Shown in pieces: positions 4,474 to 16,258 of a stretch of DNA of 21,665 nt. The notes under the pieces were generated by a model, which was given only the letters and a program-made list of their open reading frames with translations, did not search any database and had not been told where the DNA came from. The stretch lies in IMG/VR virus record IMGVR_UViG_2617270975_000008. The stretch is one strand, 5' to 3'. Within the stretch, counting starts at the first letter, position 1. Each line of letters begins with the position of its first letter. The position numbers were made by a program, and so were the translations under genes. This DNA is from a virus (lineage: Duplodnaviria; Heunggongvirae; Uroviricota; Caudoviricetes).

Positions 4474-4503
4474 TAAAAAAAGCCACCAGTTAAGTACTGA
4501 TGG
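4474..4503 (-). terminator. Intrinsic terminator between nanS-p and S (hairpin gccaucag/cugguggc followed by U-run on minus-strand RNA)
   Basis: Plus strand aaaaaaagccaccagttaagtactgatggc; 8-bp stem with one G-U pair, A-run on plus strand gives U-tract on minus transcript. Confidence 0.5.
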
Positions 4504-4589
4504 CTCTGATAACTCATGCAGGCATCTCAGACGACCCACTGACACTACCGGTGAGTTTAACGATACCTTCCATTTGACTGGCTCACTTT

Positions 4590-6458
4590 TTATGATGATG
4601 CCGGTGCATTTATCTCCAGCACCAGACTTTCTATCTCAACGCCATACGCTGCATTTTTGGTAATATCCGTCAGCGTCAGCGCATTCAGCCCCAGTGTCAG
4701 ACTGTCTTTTATGACCTGGAATGCCGGGCCAGCCACTCCATTCAGTTTCGGAGTAACCGTGGCACTGCCGGCGGTGAACACCAGCTCCAGCGTCTGCCAG
4801 TCGTTACTGTAATTCCCGAACTCGCCCAACTTTGTGTTTCCGGCTTTCTTGTGATGCATCAGATTCAGTTTGCCGTCTGTGGTCTGGGTGAAGAACGACA
4901 TCAGGAACGGGTTACCAGTCCCGGTCATCGCCACGACGTCAGGTAACGCTACATCGGTATACAGATAAATTCCCAGACCGAACTGGTTGTTGGTCAGTGC
5001 GCCTGACAGTCGAAACTTACAGCTCAGTCTGCCACCCCGTGTCAGCAGGGAGACTGCGTCATCCACCGGATGCATCAGGGACCAGGTTTTATTGCTCTGC
5101 TTGGTAACCTTAAACACACCATCTTCCAGCGCAACACTGCCGCCGGTGATGGTCCAGCCCTGCGCAGCAGCCTCTCCGGCTGTCGGCAGCAGGGAGATTG
5201 TGCGAACGGACGTATCTGCAGACGGACCCGATGGCGTGTCGCCGCCGGGCGAGGGTTTGATTTCCGGTGCCTTACCACTGATGAAGGCTGAGGTGCGCCC
5301 GGCTACGTTCAGAATAGCAGTTGCCATACGATCGGGAATAATGCCACGACGCGCCCATGAGCTGAAATGCGTCGGGCGATTTGATGATACCCAGTTTTTG
5401 TTCGTTCGGGATGCCGAACCGTAATAACCAGACCCGGCAATATCAGGATCTTCTGACGGGTTGTTTGTCGGTGTATTAACTCCGCTACCATCGGTCATAA
5501 AGGGAACAAAATAAATCTGCTGGGATTCTTTACCTTTATATGCACCATATACCACTTCATATTGCGTACCGTGTTCTTGTTTCCACGCGTATGTCGTGTC
5601 GCCACAAATCCAGGGGACTGATGCCGGACTTCCACCGTGACACTGCGCTGCCAGCCCGGCAAGGTCAGCACGGAACTGCTGTACCATTGCAAGAAATGCT
5701 GCTGGCTGCTGGGCGTAACTGGCATTCGTCATATCGAATTCCCCCTGCATCCAGCATATCGCCAGCAAAACGTTTTTCGGGTTTTTCTGCAATGCTGCCT
5801 TCGTGCGGAAAAGCAGATCCTGATATAACGGCTTACCCACTCCCCAGCGAGCCGAATCCTGACTGGCCCCCGTGGACTCGCTGAATGTCCCCTCCGTGCC
5901 CTGGGTGAATGCCGAACCACCACGACAGCATGGTACCAGCAGGATCCCCGCATTATTAGGGATATACGGAAGCAGTTTTTTGGCAATATGTAAGCCCTGG
6001 CCGACACAGCCGTACTGCCCTTTGCTCAGGTCAGCCCGGGGATGGTTAATCGTACTCATATCCTGAACATCATGCAGACAATGGTCAGCAGGAATGATGT
6101 CGTTAAATACGCATACTTCACCACCGGGAGTCACTGTGTTACGACGGGCCAGTTGCTTAATGCGCGGATGGGGCGCATCGTATGAATCCGGAAGCGGAAG
6201 CCCTTCACCGTAAGCCATGGCATTGGACTGCCCGGCCAGTACGATGACGTAGTACCACTCCGGCTCAGTTGCACCACTGACGACCACATCACCTTCTGCT
6301 GCAATCGCCTGCATCAGGGTATAAGGGGTTATGGCCACCGGACTACCAAACGGCTGCCAGCCCTCTTTCAGTTTATGTGTCAGCTTTTCCGCAAGATCTG
6401 ACGGCGACGCCGCCCTGACAACATCATAGTGTTTAAATGCCATGGTTCTTTCCACCAT
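4590..6458 (-). CDS. nanS-p: NanS-p-like sialate O-acetylesterase (N-terminal DUF1737-like region, SASA/SGNH esterase domain, C-terminal carbohydrate-binding-like region)
   Basis: 622 aa; GQSN catalytic-serine motif (VIVLAGQSNAMAYG); position immediately upstream of holin S as in Stx phages. Confidence 0.7.
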   Translation of the reverse strand: MVERTMAFKHYDVVRAASPSDLAEKLTHKLKEGWQPFGSPVAITPYTLMQAIAAEGDVVVSGATEPEWYYVIVLAGQSNAMAYGEGLPLPDSYDAPHPRIKQLARRNTVTPGGEVCVFNDIIPADHCLHDVQDMSTINHPRADLSKGQYGCVGQGLHIAKKLLPYIPNNAGILLVPCCRGGSAFTQGTEGTFSESTGASQDSARWGVGKPLYQDLLFRTKAALQKNPKNVLLAICWMQGEFDMTNASYAQQPAAFLAMVQQFRADLAGLAAQCHGGSPASVPWICGDTTYAWKQEHGTQYEVVYGAYKGKESQQIYFVPFMTDGSGVNTPTNNPSEDPDIAGSGYYGSASRTNKNWVSSNRPTHFSSWARRGIIPDRMATAILNVAGRTSAFISGKAPEIKPSPGGDTPSGPSADTSVRTISLLPTAGEAAAQGWTITGGSVALEDGVFKVTKQSNKTWSLMHPVDDAVSLLTRGGRLSCKFRLSGALTNNQFGLGIYLYTDVALPDVVAMTGTGNPFLMSFFTQTTDGKLNLMHHKKAGNTKLGEFGNYSNDWQTLELVFTAGSATVTPKLNGVAGPAFQVIKDSLTLGLNALTLTDITKNAAYGVEIESLVLEINAPASS

Positions 6459-6703: not shown

Positions 6704-7039
6704 ATGAAGTGGATTGTGATTGATACAGTTATCCAGCCATCATGCGGAATATCTTTTTCAGTCATATGGAGTAAAATAAAATTAATAATCTGGTATCAAT
6801 CGGATGCTTTCTTACCTCCTGAAAGTATATTTACACTGACTCACACAGGCATCATGCTCAATAACAAAGTGCTGCCTGTAACCATTTACAACGTAGTACC
6901 ATTCAATAAAACATTCTGGAATTTAATCAAAAACAGCCAGGAATGCCCTACAAATACAGATAACGTATTGAATGAATGCTTTAATAACCGTTGCACTCTG
7001 CAAATATGTCCTTATGGGCTAAAACAACAAAGTCCATAA
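6704..7039 (+). CDS. Hypothetical Cys-containing protein (111 aa) in AT-rich cargo at the stx-equivalent locus
   Basis: AAGGAA SD 5-6 nt before ATG; long ORF in AT-rich DNA where stops are frequent; antisense to late operon. Confidence 0.5.
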
Positions 7040-7074
7040 GGAGTTTACTCACATCTGACAAAATCAATATAAAC

Positions 7075-7096
7075 AGCCCCTCCGGAGAGGGGCTGG
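7075..7096 (-). terminator. Stem-loop (cccctc cgga gagggg core) with U-rich tail on minus-strand RNA; candidate terminator
   Basis: Plus strand cagcccctccggagaggggctg preceded by aaaatcaatataaa, giving a T-rich tail after the hairpin on the minus strand. Confidence 0.4.
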
Positions 7097-7486
7097 AGAG
7101 TGGCGCTATGTGCCATTGCATGGTGCCGGGTGCCTCCCGGTGAATTCAGTACCAGCACCTGAATCCGCGATTATCCCATATACCTACTCGCTGATTGCCC
7201 CTCCGCACAGGGGGATTCACCATGCCAGTTTCTTTTAACAAACTCCCCGCAAACCAGACAACAGTCAACCGCCTGAATTGTGAAGTATTTAAAAATTTCT
7301 CCCGCTAACTGATACCCGGCTAACAGTCTGGCGTTTTCTTTTTCAGCAACGGGAAAGCAGCAACCACCACACCCGCCACCAGCACACCGTCAGCCAGCAC
7401 TGACATTATCCGGCTGCTGCAATGCCATTCACAAAAACAGTAAGCAATCACTTTTTACCGTAACCGGTGATAATCCAGATATGTAT

Positions 7487-7843
7487 CTACCCCAGATGAG
7501 TAATCCGAAGTTCATCCATACCACAGGTCCTGGCTATTCTGTTGTACTCCTGAACAAGAGCAAATAATTCTGAATTAGCCACCATGAACTCATCGCAAAC
7601 CCTCTGTATAGCATCACTATTCAGAATAATAACGTCTCTTCCCGAAAGACGATCAGGAGTACAGAACAAAACTGTCAAACGGCTGAAGGCCTTTGCTCGT
7701 TCTGCATTGACTATATCAATACGCTGCCTAAGGATGAAACACCCCGACGCCTCATCAATATTCACTCTACCCACACCATATGAATGATAAATATTTAATG
7801 CTGAAAAAACCATTAGACCGTATAACAAACACTCAATCAACAC
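7487..7843 (-). CDS. Hypothetical protein (118 aa from TTG; first ATG at residue 11) in cargo region
   Basis: ORF in AT-rich DNA, late-operon orientation; weak translation signals. Confidence 0.3.
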   Translation of the reverse strand: MLIECLLYGLMVFSALNIYHSYGVGRVNIDEASGCFILRQRIDIVNAERAKAFSRLTVLFCTPDRLSGRDVIILNSDAIQRVCDEFMVANSELFALVQEYNRIARTCGMDELRITHLG

Positions 7844-7950
7844 TTAACAGAACTTTTATTTTTGACAAACATATAATATTTTCAACAATATCCTGAGCCA
7901 GGTATATTTCAGTATAAGGCTCTGCCGAAAGGAATCTGGAAGAATGAATA

Positions 7951-8124: not shown

Positions 8125-8200
8125 TGGTGGCCCTTGCTGGATTTGAACCAGCGACCTGGCGATTATGAGTCGCTCGCTCTCACCACTGAGCTAAAGGGCC
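8125..8200 (-). tRNA. ileZ: tRNA with CAU anticodon (Ile2 lysidine-type as in Stx-phage ileZ, or elongator Met)
   Basis: Manual cloverleaf: acceptor GGCCCTT/AAGGGCC, loop CTCATAA, T-stem GCTGG/CCAGC, CCA end; gene order Ile-Arg-Arg matches recalled Stx-phage ileZ-argN-argO. Confidence 0.8.
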
Positions 8201-8249: not shown

Positions 8250-9299
8250 TCAAACGATTAAATCCTGAACTTCCCTGACTGTCTGCTCAAAACGTCCGGT
8301 CTCCAGTTCAACGCCAATCGCACGACGCCCGAGCGCCAGTGCCGCTTTTACCGTTGAACCTGAGCCCATAAAAAAATCTGCAACCTGGTCTCCCGGACGA
8401 CTGCTTGCGCTGATTATCTGCTGCAGCATTTCTGCCGGTTTTTCGCACGGATGTTTCCCGGGATAGAACTGCACCGGTTTATGTGTCCACACATCCGTGT
8501 ACGGCACCTGCGCCGTCACACCAAAATACCGCCGCAGATGCTTATATTCACTCTGCAGCTCCACATACTGCCGGTTCAGTGACGTATACGTATCCACCAG
8601 CTGGTGGTGGGGCTTTTCCAGTTCACCGCGCTGATGTTTCTCTTCTGCCACCCGGGCAAACAGCGACTGTAATTTCAGATAATCGCTTTCGTTCGGTAGC
8701 TGCCACTGACTGGCACTGAACCAGTGCGACACCATGTTTTTCTTTCCTGTGGCATCTGCAATCTGTTTTGCCGTTATCCCCAGGGCCGCGCGCGCATCAC
8801 GAAAGTAAGAAATCAGCGGGGCCATCACATGCTGTTTCAGTGCACTGCCCTTCGCCGCATACCCGGCATCTTTCGGACGATACGGCCCCTGATAATGTTC
8901 CGCGAACAGAATGCGCTCTGTGGCGGGGAAATACGCCCGCAGGCTTTCCTTGTTGCATCCGTTCCAGCGTCCGGACGGCTTCGCCCAGATAATATGGTTC
9001 AGCACACTGAAGCGTTCACGCATCATGATTTCGATATCAGATGCCAGGCGATGACCACAGAACAGGTAAAGACTTCCGACAGGTTTCAGCACCCGCCAGA
9101 ACTGCGCCAGACACTGGTCCAGCCACTTCAGGTAATCATCGTCGCCCTTCCACTGGTTATCCCAGCCCTCAGGCTTCACTTTAAAGTACGGCGGGTCCGT
9201 GACTATCAGGTCAACAGAATTTTCGGGTAACGACCGGATAAATTCCAGGCAGTCGGCGTTGATTAACTCACAACTGGATATTTTTACAGTATTAAGCAT
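8250..9299 (-). CDS. Orphan DNA methyltransferase (beta-class N6-adenine or N4-cytosine; DPPY then FxGxG order)
   Basis: 349 aa; IVTDPPYF near N-terminus, FFMGSGSTVKAALALGRR near C-terminus; no adjacent restriction endonuclease ORF. Confidence 0.8.
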   Translation of the reverse strand: MLNTVKISSCELINADCLEFIRSLPENSVDLIVTDPPYFKVKPEGWDNQWKGDDDYLKWLDQCLAQFWRVLKPVGSLYLFCGHRLASDIEIMMRERFSVLNHIIWAKPSGRWNGCNKESLRAYFPATERILFAEHYQGPYRPKDAGYAAKGSALKQHVMAPLISYFRDARAALGITAKQIADATGKKNMVSHWFSASQWQLPNESDYLKLQSLFARVAEEKHQRGELEKPHHQLVDTYTSLNRQYVELQSEYKHLRRYFGVTAQVPYTDVWTHKPVQFYPGKHPCEKPAEMLQQIISASSRPGDQVADFFMGSGSTVKAALALGRRAIGVELETGRFEQTVREVQDLIV

Positions 9300-14280: not shown

Positions 14281-16157
14281 AGTTAACATTACAAGATATA
14301 AGTAATGGACGCACTCCCAATTAGTCTATTTAAATCGCCACGAGTTTAACTGACAACCCATGATCAATTATGAATTGCAACTATTTCTGTAGTCACTTTT
14401 GTGGGGACAGTCCACAAAACTGCCAACTTCCGCTTCTTGCTCTTAGCGGACATTAGCATAGGCTATTTACCATAACGCCTCATTACGCGCACCGCCCAGA
14501 CTGACTCAGCGCGTTTCTGGCATATCCCCAGTAAAACAAGTAACAAACCACCCGAAAATGAACACCAGAAACGCGACTTAAGAATCTACCCTATGAATGG
14601 ATATGCACTCAACCGAATCGATCTTGGTTTCAATCTTTTTTATCGGGATCAGGCTTCTTTTTAGGTAACTTCGGGGGCTTAACTTGCTGATGACTTTGCG
14701 TTCGGCGCGTAAGCCAGGGATGGTCAGCTTTAGGTTTAACATAGTATTTTGAGCGTAAATCAATACGGGCATTATCCACTCGTTCATGGACACTCTTTTC
14801 ATCATCCAGTGGTATAGGCTCCGGGCCATCAACATACTTTTCCCAGCCCAGCGCTTTCCCGTCATACAGAACGTTAATTTCACCGTCAAAGTTCTCGCAT
14901 ACAGTAACAACCGAATGCCTAAGTCGATATCCCCGGCTCTCACTGCGTACCTGAAACGCACTGCTTTTGTACTGGAAAGTGAGATTTTTAGACAGAACGC
15001 GCTTCGCCTGTAGGCTGAAGATATAACCCAGTTCCTCTTCAGAATGGTGCACATCAAGATGAGCATTATCAGTAGTACGAGGCGACGTAGCGAACCGGTT
15101 GTTATAGGCTTCAATAAAGGTCGGCAACCATGCATTTGCTGTTTCAATATCACTGATATTCTGAAGCCGCATTTCTTTGACCAGCCTGTCCTGTAGTGTC
15201 TGATTGGCGCGCTCTACCCGCCCTTTTGCCTGCGGGCTGTTGGCATGGATTGGCTCGATGCCCAGTGTCTTTATCGCACGAGTGAACTGGGTCAGCTCAC
15301 CTTCCCGCTCTGGGTTATTTACCCTGAATATACTGTGTCTATCAGAGTAGAGAGCGAGCGGTACGCCATGATCATTAAGGTAACCCCGGAGGGTTTCCAT
15401 GTAAGCCCGGGTTGTTTCAGCAGGCACAAAACGCAACGCCATCAACGCACTGGTGGCATCATCAATGAAAACGATCAGTGTACATCTGGGGCCTCGATTT
15501 TCAAACCAGTCATGAGGTGAGCCATCAATCTGGATCAGTTCACCGTAAGATGGTCGTCGCATGCGGCGTTGATATATACGGGCAATTTTACGGCGGCGTT
15601 CACGCCATAACCCCTCTTCTATCATCCACTTTCTGAGAGTTTCAACGGATAAAGATAAACCGTGTATCTCGCGCAATTTTTCGCACGCAAACGTAGGTCC
15701 AAAATCAGCGTAACGGCCTTTGAGGAGTGAAATTACTGTTGCTCTGAATTCAGTAGAAAAGGAATTATTAGGACGCTTTCCACGTCGGTGGGAAACCAGA
15801 CCAGAAGGCCCTTCATTTCTATACCGTTGCACCAGACGTTTAACCTGCCGAATAGAAATGCCAATGCGTGCCGCAGCTTGTTCCTGAGTAATATGTCGAT
15901 TAATTGACTCCTGAATAATCTGAAGTCGGTGGAGTTCCTTATGACTCATCGTAACAGTCTCTTTGATCATGAAAAATCCCCCAGAGAATTGTCTGGGGAC
16001 ATTTTAGAATGGTTCAAAGGGGACATTACAGCTTGGTGTTAACACATAGCCTGCTTCTCCTTGCCTTTCGGCACGTAAGAGGCTAACCTACGTGTGTAGA
16101 GCATAGATATGGCCTCAGATTAATGTTAAGCGTCTTGCCGGACGCGTAATGTTAACT
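14281..16157 (-). mobile_element. Candidate insertion sequence carrying a single DDE (rve-type) transposase; 12-bp inverted repeats AGTTAACATTAC; family uncertain (IS481-like architecture)
   Basis: Exact 12-bp inverted match at 14281-14292 and 16146-16157 flanking the transposase; extra TAATGTTAA and TGGGGACA subterminal copies; no target-site duplication found. Confidence 0.45.
14630..15970 (-). CDS. DDE transposase (N-terminal HTH, rve integrase core; IS481-like)
   Basis: 446 aa; HTH ITQEQAAARIGISIRQVKRL; DDE triad candidates in IQIDGSPHDWF, LYSDRHSIF, KGRVERANQTLQ; basic C-tail. Confidence 0.8.
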   Translation of the reverse strand: MIKETVTMSHKELHRLQIIQESINRHITQEQAAARIGISIRQVKRLVQRYRNEGPSGLVSHRRGKRPNNSFSTEFRATVISLLKGRYADFGPTFACEKLREIHGLSLSVETLRKWMIEEGLWRERRRKIARIYQRRMRRPSYGELIQIDGSPHDWFENRGPRCTLIVFIDDATSALMALRFVPAETTRAYMETLRGYLNDHGVPLALYSDRHSIFRVNNPEREGELTQFTRAIKTLGIEPIHANSPQAKGRVERANQTLQDRLVKEMRLQNISDIETANAWLPTFIEAYNNRFATSPRTTDNAHLDVHHSEEELGYIFSLQAKRVLSKNLTFQYKSSAFQVRSESRGYRLRHSVVTVCENFDGEINVLYDGKALGWEKYVDGPEPIPLDDEKSVHERVDNARIDLRSKYYVKPKADHPWLTRRTQSHQQVKPPKLPKKKPDPDKKD

Positions 16158-16258
16158 GGGGCTTTTCTCTATCTGCCTTTTGGTGTTCATGCCTGAGACA
16201 GATAGCCTCAAGCACCCGCTGCAATTCTACTTAACTCTCCTTTTCCCGCAAACCGTTT

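Follow-up and report, generated by a model that had tools for sequence, protein, structure and literature searches.

A STnc100-family small RNA gene and a probable DUF3927 gene remnant at the moron site of a lambdoid prophage

The STnc100 RNA family is catalogued in Rfam (RF02076, Gammaproteobacterial sRNA STnc100), was found experimentally in EHEC and EPEC, and has been surveyed across genomes in papers of 2025-2026. EDL933 carries 11 STnc100 copies, all but one with RNA-seq reads in the hundreds to thousands and one of them Northern-positive (PMC5331693), and STnc100 has been detected in the outer-membrane vesicles of STEC (PMC12370729). Its stx2-linked member EcOnc27 (the same RNA as sRNA103) lies 3′ of stx2B, binds Hfq, and is Northern-positive (PMC4104026, PMC7873438, PMC12711010); overexpression raises fimZ and espA (PMC4104026, PMC7873438, PMC5030294, PMC12711010). 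As Rfam models it, this stx2B-linked copy starts ~75 nt after stx2B (PMC12370729). SNPs in the stx2-adjacent paralog have been reported as predictive of HUS (PMC12711010).

Two further sets of prophage sRNAs bear on the locus described here. PasD and STnc100 have been proposed to share an ancestor and to carry different seeds (Zhu, Shabalina and Storz 2026, bioRxiv 10.64898/2026.05.13.724894). PasD2 of EPEC E2348/69 is 172 nt long (NC_011601 741157-741328), with ends taken from RNA-seq coverage and a size confirmed by Northern blot (PMC8550237 table S6). Lambdoid moron sites also carry convergent sRNA pairs, namely EcOnc27-AsxR and EcOnc06-AgvB (Tree et al. 2014).

The window—the whole 21,665-nt stretch of DNA analyzed here, IMG/VR record IMGVR_UViG_2617270975_000008—corresponds to the late-gene region of a lambdoid prophage and is read here along the minus strand. 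The segment of interest lies between two AT-rich genes, and its surroundings are organized as follows:

4590-6458: DUF1737, SASA, and DUF6645 domains (Pfam)
6704-7039, plus strand: AT-rich iraM homolog, anti-adaptor protein (NCBIfam NF007393, E 4.7e-48; PGAP)
7487-7843, minus strand: AT-rich ORF of 118 aa, function unknown (phrog_2873, E 1.7e-70, residues 11-118)
8200-7951, minus strand: three tRNAs (ARAGORN, Rfam)
8250-9299: N6_N4_Mtase domain (Pfam)

The corresponding locus of E. coli FORC_069 (NZ_CP023061 2872721-2873181) is 100% identical to the window over 7040-7500. Its PGAP annotation gives the order Q, DNA methyltransferase, tRNA-Ile/Arg/Arg, the island, IraM on the opposite strand, a SASA-family (NanS-like) esterase, and holin plus lysozyme; the 118-aa ORF carries no PGAP annotation there. 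Stx phages carry stx at the same moron site, and the IraM anti-adaptor stabilises RpoS. The STnc100 family is of moderate interest through its stx2-adjacent paralog; the window copy sits in a non-Stx context.

The original prediction had singled out 7075-7480 as a compositionally distinct, GC-rich island holding no ORF of 60 aa or more. No such ORF occurs anywhere between 7039 and 7487, and the GC content of the island (0.517) does exceed that of iraM (0.351) and of the 118-aa ORF (0.415, or 0.39 with its upstream region), but it is not GC-rich in absolute terms. Because the window averages 0.487 and backbone genes 0.53-0.54, it is the AT-rich flanks that are anomalous and the island that has backbone composition. 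Under our main reading, to which we assign a probability of roughly 0.8, the island is the surviving backbone of a lambdoid-prophage moron site—downstream of Q, the methylase, and the ileZ-argN-argO tRNAs, upstream of the NanS-like esterase and lysis genes—and contains an STnc100 sRNA and a DUF3927 remnant. The "compositional island" is thereby explained as backbone between two AT-rich morons, which is of value for annotation.

The ancestral module order is terB (tciA), DUF3927 (tciB), STnc100 sRNA, and the island is its residue. On one side, the AT-rich phrog_2873 ORF appears to have taken the place of most of terB; on the other, the AT-rich iraM moron has taken the place of a convergent sRNA. 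In terms of the pairs described by Tree et al. (2014), the sense-strand member is present in the window at the expected position and its partner is replaced by iraM, which is convergent with the sRNA just where other prophages have a convergent anti-sRNA. Neither AsxR (RF02703) nor AgvB (RF02702) gave an Rfam match at gathering score in the whole window, or at E ≤ 1 within 6900-7950, and a scan of the window that tolerated up to 3 mismatches did not find the conserved terminator motif of the convergent partner. Of 5426 complete E. coli genomes, 1189 carry the 461-bp segment at ≥80% coverage, and fragments of it turn up in 2860 genomes, with as many as 12 sites in a single genome. What the island contains is ordinary and has been described before: a multicopy prophage sRNA and the decayed front end of a tiny membrane-protein gene.

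The minus-strand RNA gene occupies the iraM-proximal part of the island:

7065-7254, minus strand: match to Rfam RF02076, STnc100 (132.4 bits, E 2.4e-29, model positions 1-206 of 206)
7066-7225, minus strand: probable transcript of ~155-160 nt, 5′ end placed by homology to PasD2
7074-7095, minus strand: intrinsic terminator hairpin of the sRNA (terminator scan; Rfam consensus hairpin)
7118-7225, minus strand: conserved 108-nt core
7232-7268, minus strand: candidate sigma-70 promoter, read from the sequence

Three identities had been left open for the island, namely a structured noncoding RNA, a leader-peptide regulator, and a gene remnant, and the first of them is right for 7065-7254. In the covariance search that had been suggested as a check, RF02076 (gathering score 47 bits) is the sole Rfam family matched in 6900-7950, even at E up to 1. 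The match identifies 7254-7065 (minus strand), at the level of sequence, as an sRNA gene of the STnc100 family, full-length and provided with an intrinsic terminator of its own. Like other RF02076 members, it has the same helices, the terminator, and the prophage location, here the moron site between the tRNA cluster plus Q and the esterase plus holin. An alignment shows no difference between the window sRNA and an O157:H7 prophage copy over the whole span from the promoter block to the end of the terminator stem; in O157:H7, the tRNA genes and their terminator come immediately before the RNA, and no ORF stands upstream. The alignment further makes the window sRNA a paralog of EcOnc27, the copy that in an Stx2a phage lies a short distance beyond stx2B; that copy differs in having a longer variable arm and another tail between core and terminator. 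Some prophages carry tandem STnc100 pairs ~280-480 bp apart in one moron site (L001 3666-3854 and 4130-4323; L006 2006-2218 and 2493-2698).

The likeness to PasD is partial. PasD1 and PasD2 of EPEC E2348/69 (Pearl Mizrahi et al. 2021) share with the window RNA the 5′ box GCAUGGUGAAUCC, a similar promoter layout, and the overall architecture, and PasD2 lies in the same gene order in E2348/69 as in the window (DUF3927, sRNA, SASA esterase). PasD is typically linked to LpxR and Q. An identity of the window RNA with PasD was rejected: since the PasD2 locus scores below the RF02076 gathering score and its alignment shares only the 5′ box and scattered positions, we take the window RNA as a canonical STnc100. 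The PasD seed UGUGAG (PMC8550237 fig. S5) and the PasD 3′ half are both absent from the window RNA 7066-7225.

Two other candidates were set aside. IpeX, a DLP12 sRNA of K-12 from the same Q-to-lysis region, was considered for a resemblance to the window RNA; MG1655 DLP12 (570000-581000) gave no RF02076 match. The cloverleaf-shaped core invites a tRNA-like reading, and neither ARAGORN nor the Rfam tRNA model calls it.

We infer a transcript 5′ end near 7225 because the window aligns there at the mapped 5′ end of PasD2, a locus that is the source of both the 5′ end and the promoter assignment and is itself below the RF02076 cut-off. In PasD2, the mapped end (NC_011601 741157) is the G of the shared GCATGGTGAATCC box, and a promoter-like TTGACT-N18-TAAAAA block ends 8 nt before it. 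The candidate promoter of the window has a −10 element TAAAAG at 7237-7232, with TG at 7240-7239, and a −35 element TTGTCT at 7261-7256; a better hexamer, TTGACT, stands at 7268-7263, yet 25 nt from the −10. This promoter block is kept in the O157 and Stx2a-phage copies; a generic promoter scan of the window did not report it. If the transcript starts near 7225, then the ~29 nt at the front of the Rfam model (7254-7226) are probably promoter and not transcribed, which suggests that the 5′ boundary of STnc100 in Rfam includes the promoter, a point of use to annotators. Pairing between 5′ leader and 3′ tail, suggested by the minimum-free-energy (MFE) fold of the 190-nt Rfam span, was dropped because that leader probably lies upstream of the transcription start.

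Structure prediction on the RNA itself, another check proposed at the outset, returned a fold stable beyond chance: the 160-nt RNA 7225-7066 has a predicted folding energy of −69.5 kcal/mol (z = −3.1), which none of 200 shuffled sequences equals. The predicted fold comprises a four-way-junction 5′ domain, a short hairpin, a single-stranded stretch of ~5 nt (ACUCU), and the terminator. In the 108-nt core, a closing helix P1 (GCAUGGUG/CACCAUGC) surrounds P2 (CCCC/GGGG), a hypervariable arm, P3 (GGAUUCAG/CUGAAUUC), and P4 (CCGGG-AGGCA-CCCGG), and the MFE fold reproduces P1-P4. The ccggg-tgcct-cccgg hairpin noticed earlier is present at 7126-7140, one base from where it had been placed, and corresponds to P4, the last internal stem of the model.

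We then compared the helices across the family, using 126 instances from IMG/VR contigs and fetched loci retrieved by exact match to a 25-mer taken from the core's 3′ side. This 25-base pattern, applied to viral contigs, replaced a 16-base pattern (GCATGGTGAATCCNCCT) that on genome contigs had returned almost only chance matches in unrelated phyla. Among the 126 instances there are 37 distinct cores. Of the 7 pairs of P3, 5 show compensatory changes; 97.9% of cells are paired vs. 38-47% with the partners slid (33 distinct cores), and none of 500 shuffles attains the covariation score of the actual data. P1, P2, and P4 are invariant in the sample, which is uninformative; in P4 and the 3′ strand of P1, the invariance stems in part from the pattern used for retrieval. 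The closing helix and internal hairpins can form across the family, with P3 covarying. A reading as a CsrA sponge, drawn from GGA motifs, was rejected, as the GGA of the P2 loop is not conserved (GCGGA, GCGGT, and GCGGC variants).

An identical or near-identical core of 103-129 nt recurs across IMG/VR loci L128-L247 with no fewer than 10 unrelated 3′ tail types behind it, a diversity that speaks for modular recombination with its breakpoint exactly where the closing helix ends on the 3′ side. A conserved 108-nt core with so many unrelated tails goes slightly past routine annotation and fits a scaffold-plus-seed design. It is conceivable, although we hold it doubtful, that the core 7225-7118 is a protein-binding or stabilising scaffold onto which lambdoid phages swap 3′ "seed plus terminator" tails by recombination. 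If so, the family would be a plug-and-play sRNA platform, the scaffold would have a partner other than or besides Hfq, and the window copy would be one tail variant. Some tails have no obvious terminator within 80 nt, such as TTTGCCACAAAAGTG... (17 loci) and ACTTCAATAGATTC... (11 loci).

In the window copy, the tail ends in a hairpin of 9 bp, 7 of them G-C, followed by TTTATATT. The original prediction was correct in taking this stem-loop, placed one base off at 7075-7096, as a minus-strand terminator. Its U tract at 7073-7066 is interrupted (UUUAUAUU), where other copies end in UUUUUUAU. It is weaker than those of the O157 and Stx-phage copies because the iraM module starts at ~7069-7075 and the homology stops there. 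Judged from the sequence, the interruption might weaken termination and Hfq binding relative to the other copies.

Taken with what is known of its relatives, the window copy is likely a prophage-encoded, Hfq-associated, trans-acting sRNA expressed in the lysogen. It would be transcribed from its own sigma-70 promoter, starting near 7225 and ending at the 7095-7074 hairpin. The 108-nt four-way-junction 5′ domain would serve as a stable scaffold, and the variable 3′ part, together with the terminator and U tail, would bind Hfq and base-pair in trans with host or prophage mRNAs. This Hfq and trans-pairing step is carried over from EcOnc27/sRNA103 (Hfq CRAC, Northern blots, fimZ and espA effects) and from PasD (RIL-seq). 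During lytic growth, Q-modified polymerase would read through the sRNA. Neither the DUF3927 remnant nor the plus-strand mini-ORF would have a role. On its own, the window copy adds little to a family that is already described.

The other end of the island corresponds to the "gene remnant" among the three identities left open, which proved right for 7320-7478:

7320-7451, minus strand: 5′-decayed ORF of a DUF3927/TciB-like membrane protein (43 aa from GTG 7451, or 28 aa from ATG 7406)
7461-7478, minus strand: 18-nt remnant of the terB/tciA 3′ end (CTGGATTATCACCGGTTA), marking the left edge of the backbone island

The hydrophobic 28-aa minus-strand peptide reported earlier exists as the ORF 7406-7320 and encodes MSVLADGVLVAGVVVAAFPLLKKKTPDC. 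Its 43-aa extension matches Pfam PF13064 at 92.7 bits (gathering 25; E 1.3e-26; profile positions 7-53 of 53) and phrog_1470, "TciB-like"; in the identical FORC_069 locus, PGAP annotates it as an intact DUF3927 family protein. The remnant thus belongs to a catalogued DUF, for which we found essentially no literature; a literature search for TciA/TciB returned unrelated Trypanosoma papers only. Full-length DUF3927 homologs have 54 aa, two hydrophobic segments, and a GTG start that overlaps the stop of a TerB-family gene, so that they are normally translationally coupled to that TerB-family (TciA) gene. The window copy, decayed over its 5′ third, has neither the start codon nor the coupling: GTT now stands where the GTG start was, and three deletions (11, 4, and 5 nt) have disrupted the first transmembrane segment (TM1), so that only the second is left. 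It is in frame only over the C-terminal ~30 codons, with about the first 11 residues missing and the N-terminal MTVKLRLA..LLLFLVVMV replaced by IAYCFCEWHC. Its C-terminal 30 residues (SSRIMSVLADGVLVAGVVV.AFPLLKKK) hardly differ from those of full-length PF13064/PHROG 1470 members. We found no convincing Shine-Dalgarno sequence at GTG 7451 or at ATG 7406.

The 18-nt stub aligns to CTGGAGAATCA(C/T)CTGTGA at the 3′ end of terB in L005 and L006, both annotated as terB followed by DUF3927, and similarity stops upstream of the stub. From these sequence features, the 43-aa ORF is probably a pseudogene remnant, without its start and TM1; "pseudogene" is our own reading, since PGAP calls the ORF intact, and the 43-aa protein is among the ORF calls that annotators should regard as suspect. 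Upstream sequence was long enough to be judged in 121 sRNA loci: a full-length DUF3927 gene precedes the core by 33-95 nt in 30 of them, the truncated allele of the window is found in 19, and the remaining 72 lack the ORF. Because of these 72 loci without the ORF, we treat the sRNA as an independent module.

Two rival accounts tie the RNA to the protein-coding sequence upstream of it. STnc100 could be a structured 3′-UTR or terminator module that stabilises an upstream moron mRNA (tciB, stx2B) and becomes an sRNA only by processing. The arrangement is suggestive: the RNA follows the DUF3927 stop on the same strand at 33-95 nt in 49 of 121 loci, and in Stx2 phages it stands shortly downstream of stx2B, again on the same strand (75 nt, PMC12370729); moreover, in the literature on family members, we found no report of a triphosphorylated 5′ end. 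Yet the O157 copy follows tRNAs and their terminator directly with no ORF before it, the mapped PasD2 5′ end has a promoter-like block 8 nt upstream, and in the window the upstream gene has decayed while the sRNA sequence is intact. We therefore consider a 3′-UTR origin unlikely and keep to the reading of an sRNA with its own promoter. Less probable again is that the 28/43-aa ORF (7406/7451-7320) is a functional single-pass membrane microprotein—a truncated active TciB-like factor or a toxin—regulated by the neighboring RNA. The ORF is open, matches DUF3927 strongly, carries a PGAP annotation, and belongs to a widespread allele (19 of the 121 loci, and the 1189 genomes holding ≥80% of the 461-bp segment). 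That spread, however, reflects recent prophage dissemination rather than selection, because the copies are ~99% identical, and the ORF has lost the full-length start and its coupling to terB, has TM1 scrambled by three deletions totaling 20 nt, has no convincing ribosome-binding site at either start, and is missing from 72 of the 121 sRNA loci. A type I toxin-antitoxin pair was likewise rejected: the sRNA is on the same strand as the ORF and does not overlap it (its core lies 94 nt, the Rfam match 65 nt, after the stop), so it cannot be a type I antisense antitoxin, and the linkage, absent from those 72 loci, is not obligate.

The remaining identity, a leader-peptide regulator, rested on SD-like short ORFs adjoining hairpins, one of them on the plus strand:

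7222-7308, plus strand: spurious 28-aa ORF, antisense to the sRNA 5′ end and promoter

This ORF does exist, with GGGGGA six bases upstream of its ATG, as had been described, but it is not a gene. The ATG is part of the palindromic CATG of the closing helix, and the "SD" is the antisense of the P2 stem. In 126 related instances, the ORF opened from the equivalent ATG runs for 2-108 aa with unrelated C-termini, so that neither length nor sequence of the peptide frame is conserved; in O157 it runs into the antisense of tRNA-Arg. It has no Pfam match, and the PHROG that it matches, of unknown function, is covered in its first half only. We call it spurious because it is not conserved and lies antisense to the sRNA promoter and 5′ end. 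As an attenuator, translation of a mini-ORF would control the 7095-7074 terminator and hence the genes downstream. The plus-strand ORF, however, heads away from that terminator; the minus-strand ORF, which most loci lack, stops 94 nt short of the RNA core; and iraM, which lies beyond the terminator, is on the opposite strand. The folds show one dominant structure in place of mutually exclusive ones, with no alternative terminator/antiterminator pairing seen. The comparative data effectively refute an attenuator, and we give it next to no weight.

In FORC_069 (L003 8071-8196, equal to window 7110-7235, plus strand) and in O157 (L004 2543-2668), the PGAP annotation places a partial "hypothetical protein" pseudogene on the strand facing the sRNA. 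Placed over a structured RNA, such a call is very likely spurious, and plus-strand hypothetical or pseudogene ORFs over the sRNA join the suspect calls.

Several minor features of the window lie outside the island. A terminator-like hairpin with an A/T run (AGCCATCAG...CTGGTGGCTTTTTTT) occupies 4474-4510 on the minus strand, between the esterase stop and the holin start; at the corresponding place, E2348/69 carries PasA on the opposite strand, and the PasA probe sequence is absent from the window. The tRNA at 8125-8200 (minus strand) is named tRNA-Met (CAT) by ARAGORN and tRNA-Ile by PGAP for the identical gene, a routine naming discrepancy: in ileZ-type tRNAs, the CAT anticodon is read as Ile after lysidine modification. 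A sok antitoxin RNA at 16045-16217 (minus strand; RF01794, full length, 115 bits) implies a hok/sok type I module in the early region.
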